NCBI GenBank assembly: GCA_023137195.1
Contig: JAGLPV010000001.1
Location: 42,242-106,241, forward strand
Reading direction: 5' to 3'
Length of the DNA stretch: 64,000 nucleotides
Source of the DNA: Candidatus Aenigmatarchaeota archaeon
GTDB taxonomy: Archaea; EX4484-52
The notes below the pieces were generated by a model. It saw nothing but the letters and a program-made list of their open reading frames with translations. It had not been told where the DNA came from and did no database searches. Numbering within the stretch: position 1 is the first letter of the stretch; each line of letters opens with the position of its first letter. The translations under genes were made by a program, and so were the position numbers. Positions 20,574 through 28,082 of this stretch are shown here, piece by piece.

Positions 20574-21474
20574 TCAACTTTTTTCCTCTAATTTCTTCCT
20601 ATTTTCCTTTAAATCCAGATAATTATCCTGGGAGACTATTTTTATTCCAAAACTCTTTTCTGCATCAATTCTTGCCCTTCCTGCGACTTTTCCGCCTTCT
20701 ATTGCTGTATCTTTGTTTTGGATAAAGCCCTGCGCATCTTTCTTTCGTGTTGCTTCTGTTGTTAATTTCTCGCCCAGCATTGAAAAGATAAGCTCTAAAT
20801 CAGCCATCCTAAAAAACCCGAAGGGGTTTTTGGGACACCAAAAATCTATGATTTTTGCGTGTGTGATCCCTTAAATTCTGGTTTTTGAATTTTGGGTCGA
20901 GTCCTTTAATTTGTTTGTGCGCTTTAATAGGGACTCCGAAAGTGGCTTTGGAGATTTCATTTGTCAGGATTGCGTAATCTCTTTTTTCTTCTATTCCTCT
21001 GTTTTTCCACTCTTCTGTTAATTCCTGTCTTATGGCGATTCCTCTTAAGCGTTTGTCAATCCAGTCTTTTGGGTATCCTTTTAATTCGTAGTATTCTTTT
21101 GCCCTGTCCTGTGCGAGTTCAGGGTTTTGAATTTCCTGTATTCTTTCGTATCCGACTTTTGCGAGCCATTGCTTGAATGGTTCTGCTTTGAGGGAAGGGA
21201 TTGATTGGATAAGACGAAAAGCTCCTTTCGTGGAGACGCAATTGAGCTTCTGAAGACCTCCGGCAGTTTCAACTGAAAGGGGGGTGGCAATTTGCCCCCA
21301 TCCTTCTGCAAAACTTTCGTCTCTTCGTCTCATGTCCTTTAAATATCCTTTTGGGTCTTTGCTGTCAGTGAGGATGGCAATGATGTCTGCGGCAACAAAC
21401 CACCATTCGTCATTAAACCATGTTCTTCTGATTTTTTGTCCCTCGAATATTGCAAGTGAGTTGGTTTGGTTCAT
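20574..21474 (-). pseudogene. Bro-N / DinD-like (DNA-damage-inducible protein D family) gene split by a 55-nt insert
   Basis: The 5' ORF (20809-21474) has the Bro-N core FAEGWGQIATPLSVETAGGLQKLNCVSTKGAFRLIQSIPSLKAEPFKQWLAKVGYERI. It reads ...NLRDH, then runs into 17 junk codons and a stop. The 3' ORF (20574-20807) starts MADLELIFSMLGEK..., which is the expected continuation. The insert at 20808-20862 forms two hairpins. Confidence 0.7.
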
Positions 21475-21477
21475 ATT

Positions 21478-22794
21478 TTACCTAAATTTAGTCCAATTAA
21501 AGCCTTTATCATGGCTTTTTTCAAGATATATTCCTTTATATCCGAGTATTTCTAACATAAATCTTTCAAAAATATTTAATGCTAAATAATATGCTTTTGT
21601 AGTTTTTTTAAAAGTTATTTTTTTAATTGGATTTTTTGATTTTCCTTCATGAATAACTAAATTTCTAATATCTATTAGAAGTTTCAAATTTTTTTCAGAG
21701 TATCTAAATTTTTCTAGATTAAAAATTTCTTCTAAAATTTCTTTAAAACTTTTTTTAATTCGCTTTCCTTTTTTATTTTTTATATAATTTCCTTTATTAT
21801 CTCTTTTATGTTCGTCAATCAAACAACTTTTAATATATCTTTCTTTCAATGCTTCAAACAAGATTGCAATTAGTGCAAATTTTGCCTCTAATGTAACGCA
21901 ACGAAAAGATTCTATGTAAAATTCAATTAAATCGTGAAAGTCATTGATTTTATTTAAAATCGCTTCAAAATTTGGATATGTTTTTTCAATAACATCAGAA
22001 ATAGGATTTGAATAACTAAATCGAAGAATGCCATCATTTTCCGAATAAGGATATTTTTTATCATCAAAATAAATTCTCTTTAAGGCATTATCTTGTACAA
22101 TTTCAATTTTTTCTAAAGAAACATAGTTTGCAGTATAGAATGACAATAAATACAACAACTGATGTATAGTTTTTGTTTTATTAGAAATATAAATAGAATT
22201 AGTTTCGAATCGAATAATAGCAGTAGTCTGACATATTCCATAATACTCTAAAAGATCTTTAGAATTTTTATCATAATAGTATGGACATACCCTATATTTT
22301 TGTTTGTCAATAAAAAAATCCCTTTTGTAAACACTTATTTTTCCAAGATTCATATTATTCAAATAATATCTTACTTCTTTTTTGCCTCTAATAAATTTGC
22401 CTTCTTTTATTTCTAAATCACATGGAAGAAATTTCCATATTTGACGCCCTTCTGACCCACATAGAATATTTTTTTTAATTACAATTTTCTCTTCATTTTC
22501 ACTTATGCCTTCAAATCGGAATATTTTTTTTGATATTTTTTCGTCTATATCTAGAAAAATATTATTATCCGAATATAAAAAAAACTCTTTAACTCCATTA
22601 GAATAAATAATTAATCGAAAATTACCAGATATTACCAAACCCTTTTTATTAATTGTTTTGCCTTTGCCAGAATATTCTTCAGATTTTTTAATTTGCTTTT
22701 TTTGTTCCGCACATGTTTTTTTTAGTTCTTCGTTTTCTTTTCTTAATTTTTCATTTTCTTCCACAAGATTATTATTTTCTTCTATTTTACTCAT
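21478..22794 (-). CDS. Coiled-coil protein with a C-terminal HEPN-like Rx4H motif (candidate ApeA-like abortive-infection RNase)
   Basis: 438-439 aa. N-terminal heptad-like EENEKLRKENEELKK. The C-terminal helical region contains LEAKFALIAILFEALKERY and IDIRNLVIHEG (RNLVIH at 21649-21666). Its ATG at 22794 overlaps the TGA of the upstream 34-codon ORF. Coding status is solid; the function is hypothesis. Confidence 0.75.
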   Translation of the reverse strand: MSKIEENNNLVEENEKLRKENEELKKTCAEQKKQIKKSEEYSGKGKTINKKGLVISGNFRLIIYSNGVKEFFLYSDNNIFLDIDEKISKKIFRFEGISENEEKIVIKKNILCGSEGRQIWKFLPCDLEIKEGKFIRGKKEVRYYLNNMNLGKISVYKRDFFIDKQKYRVCPYYYDKNSKDLLEYYGICQTTAIIRFETNSIYISNKTKTIHQLLYLLSFYTANYVSLEKIEIVQDNALKRIYFDDKKYPYSENDGILRFSYSNPISDVIEKTYPNFEAILNKINDFHDLIEFYIESFRCVTLEAKFALIAILFEALKERYIKSCLIDEHKRDNKGNYIKNKKGKRIKKSFKEILEEIFNLEKFRYSEKNLKLLIDIRNLVIHEGKSKNPIKKITFKKTTKAYYLALNIFERFMLEILGYKGIYLEKSHDKGFNWTKFR

Positions 22795-22898
22795 CACAAC
22801 CCTCCTTCAACAACTTTAATCTCATCATCATTTAGCTCATACAACAGATAAACCATTCTGTCAATTTCCTTGTCGGTTTCATCTATTTTTTCTTCCAT
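22794..22898 (-). pseudogene. 34-codon relic/mini-ORF duplicating the C-terminal tail of a type IIG methyltransferase
   Basis: MEEKIDETDKEIDRMVYLLYELNDDEIKVVEGGL* compares with the RM C-terminus LKEKIDETDREIDKMVYKLYGLSNEEIGIVEGL* (23551-23655). A ~45-nt nucleotide core is nearly identical. Confidence 0.55.
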
Positions 22899-22933
22899 CT
22901 CATCACAATAATTTTTTTGTTATTTTCATACTT

Positions 22934-23554
22934 TTAATATATGTTGAATCGTTCTCTCAATATGCATCTTGTTTGCTCTAAACTATAAAGCAATCCTTTT
23001 TTATCAGAATTGTCATTTATTATATCCATTATTTTTAAATGATAATAATTGTAAATTTTATCTTTTAAAATAAAATCATATCTTTTGTTTTTGGAGTTTA
23101 TGAAAACATTAAAAGAATCTTGTATTTTTATCATCATGAAATTGATAATGCGGGATTTATCTTCTATTCGATTTATGTATTTTTTTAAATCATTTGTTGA
23201 TCTTTTATCAATTTCATAATCGAGAATACGATAATACAACGATTCATTAGGTAATGGTAATAAATAAAAGGGAATGGATTGTTTTTTATAAGATTCTATC
23301 ATTTTTTCAATTTCATCAATCTTATATTTTAGTGTCCTTAATTGAGCTTTTTGATTTTTATCATGTTCTGATTTTTTAATCCATTCAGCTCCAATAAAAA
23401 TCATGATTGCAAACACTATAGAAATTATTGTAACCGACCCTGCGTGTTTGTCAAAAACTTCAATTAAATAATGAAAGTTACTATATATTAGAGTTAATAA
23501 TATTCCTAAAAAGAGTCCAAATAGGAAATAAATATAATTCTTTTTTTCCATCAT
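22934..23554 (-). CDS. Two-TM membrane protein with a helical cytoplasmic domain, unknown function, coupled to the RM gene
   Basis: 206 aa with hydrophobic segments YIYFLFGLFLGILLTLIY and VTIISIVFAIMIFIGAEW. Its ATG overlaps the RM stop (ATGA at 23551-23554). Confidence 0.7.
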   Translation of the reverse strand: MMEKKNYIYFLFGLFLGILLTLIYSNFHYLIEVFDKHAGSVTIISIVFAIMIFIGAEWIKKSEHDKNQKAQLRTLKYKIDEIEKMIESYKKQSIPFYLLPLPNESLYYRILDYEIDKRSTNDLKKYINRIEDKSRIINFMMIKIQDSFNVFINSKNKRYDFILKDKIYNYYHLKIMDIINDNSDKKGLLYSLEQTRCILRERFNIY

Positions 23555-26500
23555 AATCCCTCAACAATCCCAATTTCTTCATTACTCAATCCATACAATT
23601 TATAAACCATTTTGTCAATTTCCCTATCCGTTTCATCTATTTTTTCTTTCAGTTCTATTAATTCCTTTTTTCGCTCTTCAAAATACCCATCCCATTCATC
23701 CTGCTGTTTTAGAGACAGATTTATTTTTTGCTTTTTCAATTCGCCCAAAAAATCGGCAAAATTCAGATTAAAGAATTTATCTAATTTTTTTGTAATTTTT
23801 TCTAAATTTAAATTCTGCTTTAGTCGGCTTAAAAATTTGTTTTTCTTATTGTAAAAGTCCTTATTTAAATCAAGCATTATATCTGCTTTTTCTATGAATA
23901 GAGTTTGTTTTTCAATATCTATTTTTTTAATCGGAAATTTCCTCAAATCATTTAAAATTATTTTTGGAAACATTTTTCTAACAGATTTAGCCGTACTCTT
24001 TAAGAAATAATAAGACATTAAACTACTATTGAGTATAACCAATATATATTTCAAAGAAATATTTGTTCCTTCTTTTTCTATGATGGCAATATTGCTCCGA
24101 TTGAATAAATATAATTCATCACTAAATGTTGATATAATAGATTTCGGGAATGTTCCTGTAATTTCTCGTATAATTAGTTTAGATCCAGAAAATATATTAA
24201 ATGTTCTGGGGGCGGCAAGATGCTCGCCATATTTTAAATATAAATCACGCCAATTCAAATAATATCTTCCTACATCTTTTCCGTCCAAATATTTATGCGT
24301 GTCTTTATCATATTTGTAATTGAAATCATATGGTCTCTTTTTCACATCTTCTGCTGTTTGTTTGGGATTTCCTTTTCCATCTTCGTATGCTTGTAAACCT
24401 GCTTTTATGGTTGTTAAATCATTCAAGATACTTGAATTTGCTTTTAGTTTATTTAATAGTTTTTTGCTGTTATCATCAAAAAATACTTTAAATTCAAAAT
24501 CATCATCATTCTTAAAATCTTCTTGATTTTTTGAATGCGAGAATTCAAATAGTTTTCCTCTGCTCATTAAAATATTTATTTTATTAGTTTTTGTGTTTTG
24601 TTTTTTTGCATTAAAAATTATGGTTTCTACATTTACTCCTTCAAATGAATAACCAGATAAATTTATTATCTCTTTGATTTCGGAGGTTTTTAATATATAT
24701 TCTCTTAATTTCTTTGCAGAATTTACCATTAGCCAAGCATTTGGGACAATTAATCCATAATTCCCAGAATTCTTTAATAGAGCTATAGATTTCTCGATAA
24801 ATAATACATAAGTATTTACTTGATATTGGGCAGAATCATAATTGGACGAGTAATAATTTTTCTCTTCTTCGGATATTTTTTCTCTGGCAAAAATGTAAGG
24901 CGGATTCCCCACAACAACATCAAACCCGCCTTTCTCAAAAATCTCTTTAAACTCATCTCCCCACTTAAACGCCTTTTTCCCGGCAACTGCCTCATCATCA
25001 ATCAATGAATTTCCGCATTTGATATTTTCAGACAAACTGATTAATTTCTTGTTTTTTCTGGCAATTTTCAAAAACAGGGACAATTTTGTAATTTCAACAG
25101 ATTCTTCATTCAAATCCACGCCGAAAATATTATTCTGGATTATTTCCTTTGCCTCTTCCTCTTCGCTCCATTTTTTAAGCATTAATTGATTTTTTCCTTT
25201 GCTAAATGATGTGTATTGTCCGCTGTCCTGCTTGAACAGCCCGATTTCCCTGTGGATTTCCAGAAGAACATCAACTGCTTTTATCAAAAAAGCACCACTG
25301 CCGCAGGCAGGGTCAAGTATTTTTATATTGGCAAATTTTTCCTCAAGTTCTCTCATATTGCCGGAATATTCCAGAACCAGCTCTTTTGGAGTTTTGGCGG
25401 ATTTCTTTGACAAATAAGGGATGATGGTATTCCTGCAAATATAGTCTGTGATATATTCAGGAGTGTAAAATATGCCTTCCTTTTTTCTTTTTGAAATTTT
25501 GGATTCTTTCAGCGCATCTATATCGCTGAGGGACTGCTCGAAAATATGCCCGAGTATATTGACGCTGACCTCTGTCTTAAAGTCAAAAGAAGCCATCAAT
25601 AAAATGTTTTTCACTATCGGGTTTATTTTCCCGCTGTATTTGTCAATTGACTTTTGGGTGATTTCATCCAGATTTGCATCCTTTGCAAGACTGGAATTCT
25701 GGTAAATTTCAGAAAAAAAGCCCTTGTCCCGCATATCCTTAAAATAGATTTTCCGGGGTATCGGCATCCTGAAAAATTCCCCATTGAATCCGAATATTTT
25801 TATAGGGGTCGAAGCCCCTTTGTCAAGAGATAAAAACAAATCCGTTATTGAATCGCAGATGTAATGAGAATGCTCTGATATTGGCGTTGATTCCACTATA
25901 TTTACGACCCTGTCTTCAAAAATCCTTTTAGGAAGTTTGTCTGTGTCTTCTGCAAAAAAGATAAACATCAGGCGATTCAAAAATATCTGCGCAAAATGAA
26001 TGGGAGTATTTACTTTGTCGTGAAGCTCCTCGTTTTCTGCAAATTCCTTTATCAGCATCAGGCGGGTTTCATGAAACAATTTGTAAAATTCCTTTGTAAA
26101 GTTCTTTTCCTCTTTGATTGATTCATTTTCTGCTTTTTGGACAAAACCGCTTTCAATGCTTTTTTTGCCAAAAACAGCAATAAATTCCTTTAGTTTGCTG
26201 TCGCTGTTTTTGATGTCGAGAAAATCAAATATATGGTATTTGTCGTAGCTTTTGCCTCTATCGAACAAAACAAAATGCCTGTAATTTGTAAGAATGCCGT
26301 AAGGTATTTCGTATTTGCTCAAATAATCCCATATCTGGTTTACAGGCGTTGCTCTTGTTTTTGTATCTCTGCCCTGATATGCCCATAAATCTTTTGTTTT
26401 TGCGCCTTTTGCCTCAAAGCAAACCAATTTTTTTGAGTTTGAATCATTGAAAAGAAATTCAATATTGTGCCTTTCAAAATCAAAGTTTTTTGTGTTGTAG

Positions 26501-26679
26501 TCCAGTAAATTGTTTAATATTGTATCTGCAAACCTGAAATAATTTTTCTTCTCATCCTCTAATTTGTTATTTTCCAGCAATTCAATCCATTTTTTAGCAG
26601 CTTTTTTTTGCGATGCAGACGGCAAAGTATCAGAGCAAAGTTTTTCAAGAGTTTTTGGCTTGAACAAATTAGTTTCCAT
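23551..26679 (-). CDS. Type IIG (single-chain, Eco57I/MmeI-like) restriction endonuclease / N6-adenine DNA methyltransferase
   Basis: The N-terminus has a PD-(D/E)xK-like VCFEAKGAKT plus GILTNYRHFVLFD. The AdoMet motif ILDPACGSGAFL is at 25288-25317. The catalytic GNPPY has its NPPY at 24895-24906. A long C-terminal target-recognition region ends in the MVYKLYGLSNEEI tail. The start is probably METNLFK at 26679; the track start is 26697. Confidence 0.85.
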   Translation of the reverse strand: METNLFKPKTLEKLCSDTLPSASQKKAAKKWIELLENNKLEDEKKNYFRFADTILNNLLDYNTKNFDFERHNIEFLFNDSNSKKLVCFEAKGAKTKDLWAYQGRDTKTRATPVNQIWDYLSKYEIPYGILTNYRHFVLFDRGKSYDKYHIFDFLDIKNSDSKLKEFIAVFGKKSIESGFVQKAENESIKEEKNFTKEFYKLFHETRLMLIKEFAENEELHDKVNTPIHFAQIFLNRLMFIFFAEDTDKLPKRIFEDRVVNIVESTPISEHSHYICDSITDLFLSLDKGASTPIKIFGFNGEFFRMPIPRKIYFKDMRDKGFFSEIYQNSSLAKDANLDEITQKSIDKYSGKINPIVKNILLMASFDFKTEVSVNILGHIFEQSLSDIDALKESKISKRKKEGIFYTPEYITDYICRNTIIPYLSKKSAKTPKELVLEYSGNMRELEEKFANIKILDPACGSGAFLIKAVDVLLEIHREIGLFKQDSGQYTSFSKGKNQLMLKKWSEEEEAKEIIQNNIFGVDLNEESVEITKLSLFLKIARKNKKLISLSENIKCGNSLIDDEAVAGKKAFKWGDEFKEIFEKGGFDVVVGNPPYIFAREKISEEEKNYYSSNYDSAQYQVNTYVLFIEKSIALLKNSGNYGLIVPNAWLMVNSAKKLREYILKTSEIKEIINLSGYSFEGVNVETIIFNAKKQNTKTNKINILMSRGKLFEFSHSKNQEDFKNDDDFEFKVFFDDNSKKLLNKLKANSSILNDLTTIKAGLQAYEDGKGNPKQTAEDVKKRPYDFNYKYDKDTHKYLDGKDVGRYYLNWRDLYLKYGEHLAAPRTFNIFSGSKLIIREITGTFPKSIISTFSDELYLFNRSNIAIIEKEGTNISLKYILVILNSSLMSYYFLKSTAKSVRKMFPKIILNDLRKFPIKKIDIEKQTLFIEKADIMLDLNKDFYNKKNKFLSRLKQNLNLEKITKKLDKFFNLNFADFLGELKKQKINLSLKQQDEWDGYFEERKKELIELKEKIDETDREIDKMVYKLYGLSNEEIGIVEGL

Positions 26680-26729
26680 TAGTATAAATACTCTCAAATC
26701 TTATAAATTTATTCAATATGCAAACGATT

Positions 26730-28082
26730 TTAAAACACCTCTAATTGCTCCCTATACAACTCAACATAATAATAAACTGCCTGCTTTATATCCCCGTATT
26801 TTGTTCCCCTTATATGCGAGTAGTATTTCTCCTTCATGTCATTATAAAATATTATTGGAAAATACCCATGCTTGATTAATATAAAGTTAAACAGCAATCG
26901 TGCAACTCTTCCGTTGCCATCGTCGAAAGGGTGAATATAAACAAATTGATTATGAACCACCAAAGCAAGCACTAATGGATGAAGTGTGTTGTTGTTTTTA
27001 TTATACCAATCGACCAATAACCTGACTCTTTCATCGACAAACTCAGGGGGAGTGGTATTATCAACAAGAATTCCTGAATCATTAATAACGCAATTATCCT
27101 CTATTTTATAATTGCCCGCAGATTCCCCGATACCCTGTTGAGTAGCTAAGTTTAGCTTTTTTATGAATTCAACAGTAAGCTCATTTGACGTATCAAAGAT
27201 ATTATCCAATGCAGTTCTTGAATTTGTAGTTTCCAATATTGCTTTTTTATCTTTTTTTACAAGCTCATTTCCTATGGTAAGAATAGTTCTTACATCCTGC
27301 ATAGTAAGAATGTTTCCTTCTATTTTATCAGTATTGTAAATATATTTTATTTTCCAATCTGTTATTCGTCTTTCTATCTCAAAAATATTTGAATAAAATT
27401 CTTTTCTCTTTTTCTCTGTTAGTACATCTATTACAGTAATAAGGGGAAAATCAGTTTCCCTTAATTTACTTAAGATAAAATCTTTCCCGTCTAAATAATG
27501 TTTTATGTTGAGTTCTGCTAATTCTTTAGATTGATCATCAGGGAGATGTTCTTTTTTTGCAGTAGTTGCTGAAAAAAATTTTATTACATCATGTCTATAC
27601 TCTTCCTCATCAAATTTTAAATCGATATCAAAAAAGTCTAATAACATTTTTGTTGGTTCTTCCCATGACCTAATAAGATAAATGACACTATTTCCTTTAT
27701 GAATAGAGTATATTATTCTTGTCTTTCTTGCGATGTCTTTAACTACTCTTAAATTATGATATGGAAGTTCATGTGATTTTAATGTTGGTTCAACACTAAA
27801 CCTTTGTAATATATTTTTTACATGAGTCGTGAATAATGATTCCGCATCCTGTTTGAAAATAGCAGTAATTGCTTCTATGATTTTTACTTTTGCGTTCATT
27901 TTATTTAGCGAATAAACACCTTTGCCCTCTTTTGTAATGTAATTCAAATTTTGTAATTTTCTTAAATACGGATGAATCCCGGAGTGATATTTTAGATTCA
28001 TTAAAATCGCTAATTCTTCCGAAGTATAACTTTCTTTATTGCCTAAACACATTTTTATTAATATTTTTATTTCTTTATTCAT
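26730..28082 (-). CDS. Fic-domain protein (putative AMPylase) with an N-terminal winged-helix domain
   Basis: The Fic motif HPFDDGNGRVAR is at 26898-26933. An intramolecular inhibitory-helix-type motif TDKIEG ([S/T]xxxE[G/N]) is at 27315-27332. The N-terminus is MarR-like wHTH (ELAILMNLKYHSGIHPYLRKLQNLNYITKEGKGVYSL). Confidence 0.88.
   Translation of the reverse strand: MNKEIKILIKMCLGNKESYTSEELAILMNLKYHSGIHPYLRKLQNLNYITKEGKGVYSLNKMNAKVKIIEAITAIFKQDAESLFTTHVKNILQRFSVEPTLKSHELPYHNLRVVKDIARKTRIIYSIHKGNSVIYLIRSWEEPTKMLLDFFDIDLKFDEEEYRHDVIKFFSATTAKKEHLPDDQSKELAELNIKHYLDGKDFILSKLRETDFPLITVIDVLTEKKRKEFYSNIFEIERRITDWKIKYIYNTDKIEGNILTMQDVRTILTIGNELVKKDKKAILETTNSRTALDNIFDTSNELTVEFIKKLNLATQQGIGESAGNYKIEDNCVINDSGILVDNTTPPEFVDERVRLLVDWYNKNNNTLHPLVLALVVHNQFVYIHPFDDGNGRVARLLFNFILIKHGYFPIIFYNDMKEKYYSHIRGTKYGDIKQAVYYYVELYREQLEVF

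Follow-up and report, generated by a model that had tools for sequence, protein, structure and literature searches.

An orphan restriction-modification gene end in a Nanoarchaeota defence island, probably displaced by recombination at a conserved tail

A mini-ORF located in a Nanoarchaeota defence island is confirmed as truly homologous to the final ~100 nt of the type IIG restriction-modification (RM) gene next to it, and it is probably the displaced end of a former type IIG RM gene, marking a recombination event at the conserved tail. The features concerned (Table 1) lie within a window of 64,000 nt, i.e., the whole stretch of DNA that was analysed, in which the Fic gene and the RM gene share one accessory island between purQ and purM. 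The RM gene (REase_MTase_IIG in PADLOC, 3e-79) encodes a protein with >1200 homologues, the C-terminal part showing 60–69% identity. The product of passenger gene X has two predicted membrane helices, both N-terminal, and matches neither a Pfam family above the curated cut-off nor a PADLOC family; other loci, too, have small membrane proteins in this slot. Gene Y combines a weak match to DUF3644 (HEPN) with an invariant RNxxxH motif; a single close homologue of it was recovered (46% identity), located 68 nt behind a type III RM system. As for the Bro-N gene, Bro-N passengers are also found behind tails in Flavobacterium (L143 and L147).

Table 1. Features of the island around the two tail copies (positions in the window).
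Feature	Position	Strand	Details and evidence
Bro-N domain gene, 3 nt behind gene Y	20809..21474	(-)	Pfam Bro-N 1e-12; PADLOC PDC-S13 5e-81
Downstream gene Y, 438/439 aa, HEPN-like	21478..22797	(-)	Pfam match YopA_C
Repeat copy 2, orphan tail	22780..22897	(-)	blastn, alignment, tail profile
Mini-ORF, MEEKIDETDKEIDRMVYLLYELNDDEIKVVEGGL*, stop overlapping the start of the next gene (TGATG)	22794-22898	(-)	
A/T-rich spacer, 35 nt, between the passenger X stop and the orphan tail	22899..22933	(-)	alignment
Passenger gene X, 206 aa, start overlapping the RM stop	22934..23554	(-)	ORF list, sequence
Repeat copy 1, working RM tail, LKEKIDETDREIDKMVYKLYGLSNEEIGIVEGL*, plus 13 nt past the stop, TGATG included	23538..23651	(-)	blastn extent
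Intact single-chain type IIG RM gene, Eco57I / MmeI_Mtase / TaqI_C subfamily	23551..26697	(-)	1048 aa as listed; Pfam Eco57I 8e-46, N6_Mtase, TaqI_C, MmeI_Mtase
Fic-domain gene, immediately upstream of the RM gene	26730..28082	(-)	Pfam Fic 6e-17; PADLOC SoFic / PDC-S04

Both repeat copies end in TGATG, a stop overlapping a start, which bears out the overlap originally described for the mini-ORF and gene Y; for the 206-aa gene, an alternative start one codon upstream would give an ATGA overlap instead. The sequences and translations of the mini-ORF and of the RM C-terminus are likewise as first described, except that the interval 23551-23655, given for the RM C-terminus, includes one codon more at its start (E-LKEK). 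In the public record, too, the gene caller reports the mini-ORF, as a 34-aa gene. The open frame around it comprises 41 codons only, with in-frame stops 8 and 10 codons upstream of the ATG, and alignment of the region upstream of this ATG revealed no significant identity to the RM gene, the homology ending at the spacer. With such a short frame, and with the 35-nt spacer and an unrelated 206-aa gene upstream, the mini-ORF was rejected as a functional type IIG gene, in which the tail would close an ORF of ~1000 aa with nuclease, methyltransferase and TaqI_C domains. Its intact frame, its ATG and its stop/start overlap are features also expected of a selected coupling ORF.

The likeness of the two tails, which the original prediction held to be genuine, is real. 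Using blastn, the check it had proposed, exactly two copies were recovered from the organism's own genome, 76% identical over 118 nt (E=4e-17), the repeat extending from position -100 to position +13 as counted from the RM stop (23538-23651 vs 22780-22897). In register, 79 of 102 nt and 23 of 34 codons (stop counted) are identical, the mini-ORF having one extra Gly codon compared to the RM tail. When the synonymous codons of both peptides were re-sampled from local codon usage, 69.6 ± 3.0 identical nt were expected (P(≥79) ~0.001), and the excess of nucleotide identity sits in the first 51 nt, 45 of which match. A tail profile built from 34 family tails, with the mini-ORF left out, assigns 57–59 bits to the mini-ORF (E=3e-15 in the whole genome) and 61–70 bits to the RM tail. 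Lys/Glu/Asp codon bias as the source of the likeness is thus ruled out by blastn, codon re-sampling and profile score. Among 74 full-length family tails, the best match of the mini-ORF is the neighbouring RM tail (0.78 identity, compared with 0.67 on average and 0.76 at most), while the protein-level score between the two is 112, for a family maximum of 113.

The mini-ORF diverges from its neighbour in the manner of a working tail. All 12 near-invariant or invariant positions of the family tail (I5, T8, D9, I12, D13, V16, Y17, L19, Y20, L22, E26 and I27) are kept, none of the 11 amino-acid differences between the mini-ORF and the RM tail falling in these columns (hypergeometric P=0.0018), and each deviation is also found in working family members. 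Neutral drift was simulated with 3000 copies, each receiving 23 random substitutions: only 28% of them keep an open frame, and their profile scores (21 ± 9 bits, maximum 55) never reach the 59 bits of the mini-ORF (0/3000). Since the conserved columns are spared and no simulated copy attains this score, the mini-ORF appears to have worked as an RM tail until recently. The original description of a duplicated RM 3′ end holds insofar as the mini-ORF is the closest relative of its neighbour, yet it is neither a recent in-place duplicate nor a drifting copy.

A pair of Flavobacterium orthologues displays both arrangements. In one genome (G198), the RM gene is followed, after a gap of 31 nt, by Flavobacterium gene Y, whereas F. 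micromati (G061) has the order RM gene, passenger X, orphan tail and Flavobacterium gene Y. The two RM proteins share ~92% identity in their first ~590 aa and 25–35% in the specificity region. The orphan of F. micromati shows ~89% nucleotide identity to the working tail of G198, with which it is colinear into Flavobacterium gene Y, but only 78% identity to the tail of its own neighbour; relative to the ancestral-type tail, the orphan stands at ~89% and the upstream copy at 78%. The orphan is the orthologue of the functional RM tail of the sister species, displaced by a new specificity region along with a tail and a passenger gene. Because homology to the ancestral gene ends ~45 nt upstream of the 33-codon tail, and hence outside it, the pair does not demonstrate a crossover inside the tail itself.

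Orphan tails recur in other genomes, both bacterial and archaeal. Among 80 loci surveyed from genome contigs, 54 have at least 2.5 kb of downstream sequence, and six of these contain an orphan tail, to which L099 and L054 bring two more (6–8). The orphans share the strand of the RM gene and lie 1.0–2.1 kb downstream of it, with one passenger ORF in between (two in L041); the recurring order is an intact RM gene, a passenger, an orphan tail and a tightly abutting next gene. The repeats reach just 52–151 nt upstream of the RM stop, and their 3′ limit falls within ~10 nt of this stop or up to 30 nt beyond. Across 301 Flavobacterium genomes, 112 tail matches were obtained: 65 belong to frames no shorter than 800 aa and 35 to frames no longer than 134 aa, roughly a third of the matches in this sample being orphans. 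Most of the 20 Flavobacterium regions fetched feature true internal orphans, several of them serial, and about 10 of 21 orphans keep a tight junction (≤15 nt) to the next gene; behind intact tails, 23 of 63 genes start ≤15 nt from the stop. The proposed survey of alternative genes behind the conserved tail revealed a hypervariable downstream slot (73 singletons among about 85 downstream proteins). The passengers belong to typical RM-linked defence types (Abi_2, Bro-N, RhuM, YhcG, AAA_13, AAA_21, superinfection immunity), and some solo orphans, with no RM gene in the vicinity, remain coupled to a defence-type gene (e.g., L034, with DUF5677). Some loci carry near-identical tail pairs (L142, 98%; L090, 94%), for which in-place duplication or gene conversion is a better explanation than displacement by foreign DNA; these pairs may still be of the target-duplication type.

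For the archaeal locus, the best supported reading is the one originally suggested, according to which the HEPN-like gene once followed a type IIG gene that is now missing. A lost gene of the neighbour's subfamily would have stood directly before the 438-aa gene, with overlapping stop and start, gene Y thus presumably being its original partner. Recombination in or beside the conserved tail-coding segment would then have set upstream of the old tail the 3′ end that the RM gene has today, the incoming block consisting of this 3′ end with its own tail and of the 206-aa membrane-protein gene, while the old tail would have been displaced with its downstream partner still attached and the gene body lost. 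Purifying selection of the tail type and the Flavobacterium pair argue for this history, whereas no orthologue of the 438-aa gene was found behind an intact RM gene among the relatives searched, so that the order of events follows from analogy with Flavobacterium, where the displacement history that would also apply here can be seen. All public copies of the archaeal locus are 100% identical, and consequently carry no population signal. The tail may act as a homology handle for such exchanges, since it provides the only good DNA homology at the 3′ side of the variable RM genes; each exchange could leave the previous tail behind, yielding arrays of tail, gene and tail. The joining step would be homologous recombination, possibly through a circular tail-plus-gene intermediate, and the orphan tail itself would now be devoid of function. 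The earlier idea of the tail as a recombination joint gains circumstantial evidence, namely the recurrent arrays and the hypervariable slot. It is quite possible, and we propose this tentatively, that the tail of type IIG and PglX-like methyltransferase genes serves across Bacteria and Archaea as a recombinase-free docking site, at which circular or linear tail-plus-gene units would integrate and excise by homologous recombination, building integron-like arrays of single defence genes.

At face value, the locus could also derive from a tandem (RM1, the 206-aa gene, RM2, the 438-aa gene) by simple deletion of the RM2 body and without any tail recombination, the RM2 tail being kept solely because the deletion could not extend into the start region of the gene that follows. 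Tandem arrays do exist (three in a row in the Parabeggiatoa contig L081), the relic diverged like a working tail, and decaying full-length pseudogenes occur in L029 and L054. We nonetheless consider this history unlikely: with random end points inside a 3-kb gene, many longer relics would be expected, but the surveyed loci include no RM gene and passenger followed by a full or long partial RM gene, against 7–8 in which a short relic follows, and the relics beside an intact RM gene all measure ≤151 nt, even the young ones (92–98% identity). Moreover, the N-terminal halves of the Flavobacterium RM genes are orthologous, which points to one gene with its 3′ part replaced rather than to two genes.

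There is little chance, in our view, that insertion of the 206-aa gene behind the RM gene duplicated a long target, both copies stemming from one resident tail. In the absence of selection, 23 differences over 102 sites would be very unlikely to leave the conserved positions untouched and the frame intact, and in the Flavobacterium pair it is the upstream copy that is foreign, the specificity region having been replaced along with it; this selection signature and this pair led us to reject a single origin for the archaeal copies, even though the phenomenon is documented (PMC2853133), direct repeats of ~100 nt lie on both sides of a single inserted gene, the closest relative of the orphan is the neighbouring tail, and near-identical pairs occur elsewhere (L142, L090, L141). 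The mini-ORF might instead have been kept as a functional element, either as a leader ORF feeding ribosomes to the start of the 438-aa gene or as a free tail peptide interacting with the RM enzyme. The ATG start, the intact frame, the TGATG overlap and the fully conserved tail residues would suit such a role, as would the fact that about half of the Flavobacterium orphans abut the next gene (≤15 nt), but intact tails have tight junctions equally often, which indicates that these are inherited and not newly selected. Furthermore, no other such short protein was found in a set of 5.8 billion proteins, and many orphans are broken by stops, frameshifts or truncation (L030, L041, L147, L149, G113). 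The ATG of the mini-ORF aligns with a conserved hydrophobic L/I position that is ordinary in the family tail, and so need not be a newly evolved start, while the GGAGG inside the relic is weak evidence for coupling, as Shine-Dalgarno use in this genome is close to background. We consider a functional element improbable.

Regarded as the displaced end of a former RM gene, the mini-ORF is a gene relic that we would advise against annotating as protein-coding without further evidence. As a marker, it suggests an earlier RM gene to which the HEPN-like gene belonged, with the membrane-protein gene and the present 3′ end of the RM gene as later arrivals. The orphan-tail scar is common and located between typical defence passengers, and orphan tails may date the order of cassette acquisition. 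If the tail is truly a homology handle, it would explain how single genes are gained and shuffled in defence islands without a dedicated recombinase, and orphan tails would provide a simple sequence beacon for uncharacterised defence genes.

Our literature search returned no paper describing the orphan RM-tail pattern. Integrons are characterized by a tyrosine-recombinase integrase beside the array and by attC-type sites. The RM-tail loci resemble them in their one-directional arrays, single promoter-less genes, one repeated element per gene and fixed platform gene, but differ in that the repeated element is the platform gene's own protein-coding sequence; an integron was rejected, as no integrase domain was detected by Pfam among the ten island ORFs scanned. 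In a phase-variable RM shufflon, a silent cassette with a specificity domain lies inverted near a recombinase, whereas the orphan is in direct orientation and consists of the tail only, without the TaqI_C region, so that this candidate was rejected as well.

HEPN genes inside RM operons are an established association, and accessory defence genes embedded in such operons include PrrC, RloC, Abi2, RhuM, Fic/Doc and DUF3644-type HEPN (Anantharaman et al. 2013, PMC3710099). The HEPN-like, Fic, Bro-N/RhuM, Abi_2 and AAA_13 genes found beside our RM genes are cargo of the same kind, while that study covers the association and not tail relics as cassette boundaries. The insertion of RM genes accompanied by a long duplication of the target (Nobusato et al. 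2000, as cited in PMC2853133) is similar, to the extent summarized there, in that no recognisable mobile element accompanies the inserted gene, which lies between direct repeats of tens to hundreds of bp; in that summary the repeats derive from one resident target, whereas the RM-tail copies differ in origin, as indicated by the Flavobacterium pair and the archaeal selection signature. Target recognition domains of RM genes move or are substituted through recombination in the short conserved sequences that flank them (Furuta et al. 2010, PMC2853133; Furuta and Kobayashi 2012, PMC3467074), and the Flavobacterium pair likewise swapped a specificity region, its type IIG genes being orthologous elsewhere; the likely recombination site is the adjoining DNA that codes for conserved motifs. 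The swaps reported in these papers are clean and in-frame, without co-transfer of a passenger or a left-over gene end. The closest parallel may be drawn with rhs (and CDI) loci, which form C-terminal displacement arrays with orphan ‘tips’, homologous recombination with circular intermediates having been proposed for rhs (Jackson et al. 2009, PMC2935791). There, the handle is the core upstream of the toxin tip and the cargo a toxin tip with its immunity gene, whereas the RM-tail handle corresponds to the very 3′ end of an RM/methyltransferase gene, the cargo is a separate stand-alone defence gene, the RM enzyme retains a complete new tail, and archaea and bacteria share the pattern. In both cases, a conserved segment of a large gene would serve as the homology handle, a new 3′ module pushing the old one downstream, where it persists as an orphan with a conserved scrap and its own partner gene, and arrays grow in a single orientation; this is the arrangement found here, with an orphan downstream of an intact RM gene, in the same orientation and with a partner gene of its own.

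The 3′ end of the type IIG RM gene does recur as a mini-ORF directly ahead of the 438-aa HEPN-like gene, as the original prediction stated. In its own genome this segment is found in exactly two copies, 76% identical over 118 nt and extending from −100 to +13 relative to the RM stop; in register, 79 of 102 nucleotides and 23 of 34 codons are identical. When synonymous codons for both peptides were drawn from local codon usage, 69.6 ± 3.0 identities were expected, and the observed value was attained in about 0.1% of the draws, the excess being concentrated in the first 51 nt (45 matches). Codon bias and low complexity are thus ruled out as the source of the similarity, and the expectation that it is not mere Lys/Glu/Asp codon bias is upheld. 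Moreover, a tail profile built from 34 family tails, leaving out the mini-ORF, matches it at 57–59 bits (E = 3e-15 for the genome) and finds no further tail relic within the window. Elsewhere in the genome, a third tail-bearing gene (G000:C8:45033-45110; 1223-aa frame) matches profile positions 7–32 only, like the longer 1200–1300-aa class of Flavobacterium.

Gene order around the mini-ORF, in window coordinates
Feature	Position	Strand	Remark
purL	31391-29001	minus	gene order of locus
purQ	28998-28222	minus	gene order of locus
Fic gene	28082-26730	minus	
type IIG RM gene, 1048 aa	26697-23551	minus	Eco57I, N6_Mtase, MmeI_Mtase and TaqI_C domains
206-aa gene, two N-terminal membrane helices	23554-22934	minus	start overlaps RM stop
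spacer, 35 nt	between 206-aa gene and mini-ORF	minus	
mini-ORF, 34 codons	22898-22794	minus	
438/439-aa gene	22797-21478	minus	ATG overlaps mini-ORF stop as TGATG
Bro-N gene	21474-20809	minus	

The host genome is a MAG of 1.42 Mb (85% complete, 35% G+C), and the organism is assigned to the Nanoarchaeota by its named relatives and by nearby genes for TBP, ribosomal P1 and an aCPSF-type protein. Three other public contigs carry the locus, all 100% identical to the window. Between 30060 and 23757 the window has a 99.94% identical counterpart on a second contig (L010), from the same metagenome as L008. At about 23757, some 100 nt short of the tail, this contig departs from the window and encodes a 981-aa RM protein that has no tail. 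The contig's last 112 nt are without a match in the MAG, and the assembly of this sample breaks exactly between the divergence point and the 206-aa gene; the divergence may reflect strain variation, recombination at the RM 3′ end or a chimeric assembly.

The mini-ORF peptide falls in one well-defined subfamily (consensus end LKxxIDxTDKEIDxMVYELYGLTxEEIxIVExS), whose C-terminus almost always lies 13 residues beyond LY. The neighbouring tail is among its best matches at the protein level, without being unique, and ranks first of 74 full-length tails at the nucleotide level. The 12 columns that are invariant or nearly so contain none of the mini-ORF's 11 amino-acid differences (P = 0.0018). In a drift simulation, 28% of the copies remained open after 23 random substitutions, while none of 3000 attained the profile score of the mini-ORF. 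Together, the simulation and the placement of the differences rule out an in-place duplicate decaying neutrally. Rather, the sparing of conserved columns and the simulations suggest that both tails were still serving as gene ends as they diverged, the gene body of the mini-ORF having probably been lost recently. The alternative, for which the same sparing could speak, is that the mini-ORF is still under selection; when its 41-codon open frame was used as a search query for a free-standing family of tail mini-proteins, it matched itself alone, and no solved structure that would indicate a structural role was found to match either the tail profile or the last 299 aa of the RM protein.

A related proposal is that the mini-ORF may act as a translational coupler for the 438-aa gene, with which it overlaps. 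The Shine-Dalgarno argument for keeping the relic is weak: SD-like 4-mers at −18 to −4 precede 8 of the 50 window ORFs of at least 150 aa, against a 9% background, and with such motifs barely above background across the genome, the GGAGG inside the mini-ORF says little. Upstream regions in the window are A/T-rich, and the overall pattern suggests that initiation there is largely SD-independent or leaderless.

Orphan tails are not confined to the window. A scan with a 6-row tail alignment, using one genome per species, yielded 80 loci, mostly from Bacteroidota and Campylobacterota, in which tails were located by six-frame profile searches; all lie on the same strand as the RM gene. Downstream sequence of 2.5 kb or more is available for 54 of these loci, and six of the 54 have an orphan tail 1.0–2.1 kb behind the intact gene; two extra loci (L099 and L054) can be added. 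One passenger gene separates the two tails (two in L041), and those identified are YhcG/DUF1016, an AAA_21/AAA_15 ATPase and four unknown proteins, one matching a PADLOC candidate family. The repeat terminates no more than about 10 nt away from the RM stop or as far as 30 nt beyond it, and reaches only 52–151 nt upstream. In all 7 loci that could be evaluated, the neighbouring tail ranks first or second among the nucleotide matches of the orphan. Solo orphans without a nearby RM gene also exist, such as a 48-residue relic in a Helicobacteraceae MAG, which lies behind housekeeping genes and runs into the start of a DUF5677 gene.

Some loci are more elaborate. In a Brumimicrobium MAG (L099 3230-4006), three tails lie inside 800 nt. 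The third continues in frame into a truncated DUF1016_N (YhcG) domain, and the resulting chimeric ORF of 168 aa has a stop that overlaps the following gene. Three type IIG genes of the subfamily stand head to tail on Candidatus Parabeggiatoa contig NZ_JAUCGK010000159.1 (L081 and L104), with gaps of 33–60 nt and nearly identical tails. A Y1 transposase domain (PF01797, REP-element-mobilising type) occurs in several 1157–1245-aa RM homologues (P0014, P0028, P0030, P0044, P0057, P0063, P0065, P0081) and in the 619-aa P0092; where checked, these proteins keep a normal tail at their end.

Within Flavobacterium, a profile search of 301 genomes found 112 tails spread over 77 genomes, of which 65 fall within frames of at least 800 aa, 12 within intermediate frames and 35 within frames of at most 134 aa; the longer 1200–1300-aa class may be PglX-like. 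The 20 short-frame places retrieved are mostly genuine internal orphans, six of them lying 0.6–1.5 kb behind an intact 1076–1300-aa gene with one passenger between. Several orphans are serial (tail / gene / tail / gene), and about ten stand at most 15 nt from the next gene. Passengers include DUF2971, a superinfection-immunity protein, Abi_2, Bro-N, RhuM and small membrane proteins. The first gene behind intact tails is hypervariable (73 singletons of about 85) and begins at most 15 nt from the stop in 23 of 63 cases. In one locus (L142 4098-4270 and 5550-5790, G343:C16), a unit of about 86 nt, made of the last 28 nt of the gene and some 58 nt downstream, is present in two tandem copies after the intact gene and three after the orphan tail; it holds a GGCGATT / AATCGCC inverted repeat, the 3′ arm of which lies in tail codons.

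The clearest view of such an event comes from Flavobacterium micromati (G061, L048), in which an RM gene (1067 aa) is followed by passenger X (531 aa), an orphan tail and AAA_13 gene Y. In its congener (G198), X is absent and the RM gene (1067 aa) is separated by a 31-nt gap from Y, at 76% identity. The two RM proteins are about 92% identical over their first ~590 residues, 25–35% over residues 600–960 and intermediate at the end. At the nucleotide level, the G061 orphan is about 89% identical to the working tail of G198, with which it shares an unusual IETTEK motif, versus 78% to the tail of its own neighbour. Since it is nearer the G198 tail and colinear with it into Y, the orphan is the former working end of the ancestral gene, ahead of which a block of new specificity region, new tail and X was placed. 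The junction lies about 45 nt upstream of the 33-codon tail, at the point where the conserved C-terminal segment begins (W.D.F motif), and not within the tail.

This pair offers a direct precedent for the idea that the HEPN-like gene once followed another type IIG gene; for the window itself, the idea holds by analogy only. On that analogy, the 438-aa gene would be the coupled partner of an earlier member of the RM subfamily, and the present RM 3′ end and 206-aa gene would be later arrivals. The mosaic profile of the RM gene against its nearest relatives is an even 40–75% identity, with no breakpoint. The 438-aa gene has a precomputed Pfam match to YopA_C and a weak one to DUF3644, and across three homologues its R377, N378 and H382 do not vary. 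A word-based protein search, which scored 8000 candidates and may have missed homologues, returned one at 46% identity, behind a type III RM system, and one at 29%, adjoining an integrase-like gene; neither has a tail relic beside it. Two metagenome scans gave no matches, and none of the relatives found in these searches provides an ortholog of the window's junction. As the sole close homologue found sits behind a type III system, the family follows more than one type of RM system.

The first slot behind Nanoarchaeota RM relatives holds a small membrane protein, for which no homology to the 206-aa protein was found, or else a HEPN gene joined by an ATGA overlap. Small membrane proteins with N-terminal helices recur in this slot (window 22934-23554, L014 8149-8637, L141, L152, L140); the window and L014 proteins, the two compared, show no detectable sequence similarity, and the L141 protein has Imm_superinfect and SHOCT domains. 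A DUF5655 gene accompanied by an ORF of ~50 aa (L005 425-1490; L011-L013 3936-5008) stands ahead of a type III RM system as well as of the Nanoarchaeota type IIG genes, and the two may form a shared upstream module.

As to mechanism, the joining step would be recombination at or beside the conserved tail segment. Three loci (L141, L090 and L142) have tail pairs 92–98% identical, which fit in-place duplication or gene conversion, so that more than one route may feed the tail / gene / tail pattern. For RM genes, the exchange of specificity domains at short conserved flanks is already known (PMC2853133, PMC3467074), and RM operons are known to harbour HEPN, Fic, RhuM and Abi2 genes (PMC3710099); in a literature search of partial coverage, we found no description of tail relics as cassette boundaries. 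The placement of a block ahead of the old tail, as in F. micromati, is the same kind of event as the C-terminal displacement of rhs loci, which Jackson et al. ascribed to homologous recombination with circular intermediates (PMC2935791).
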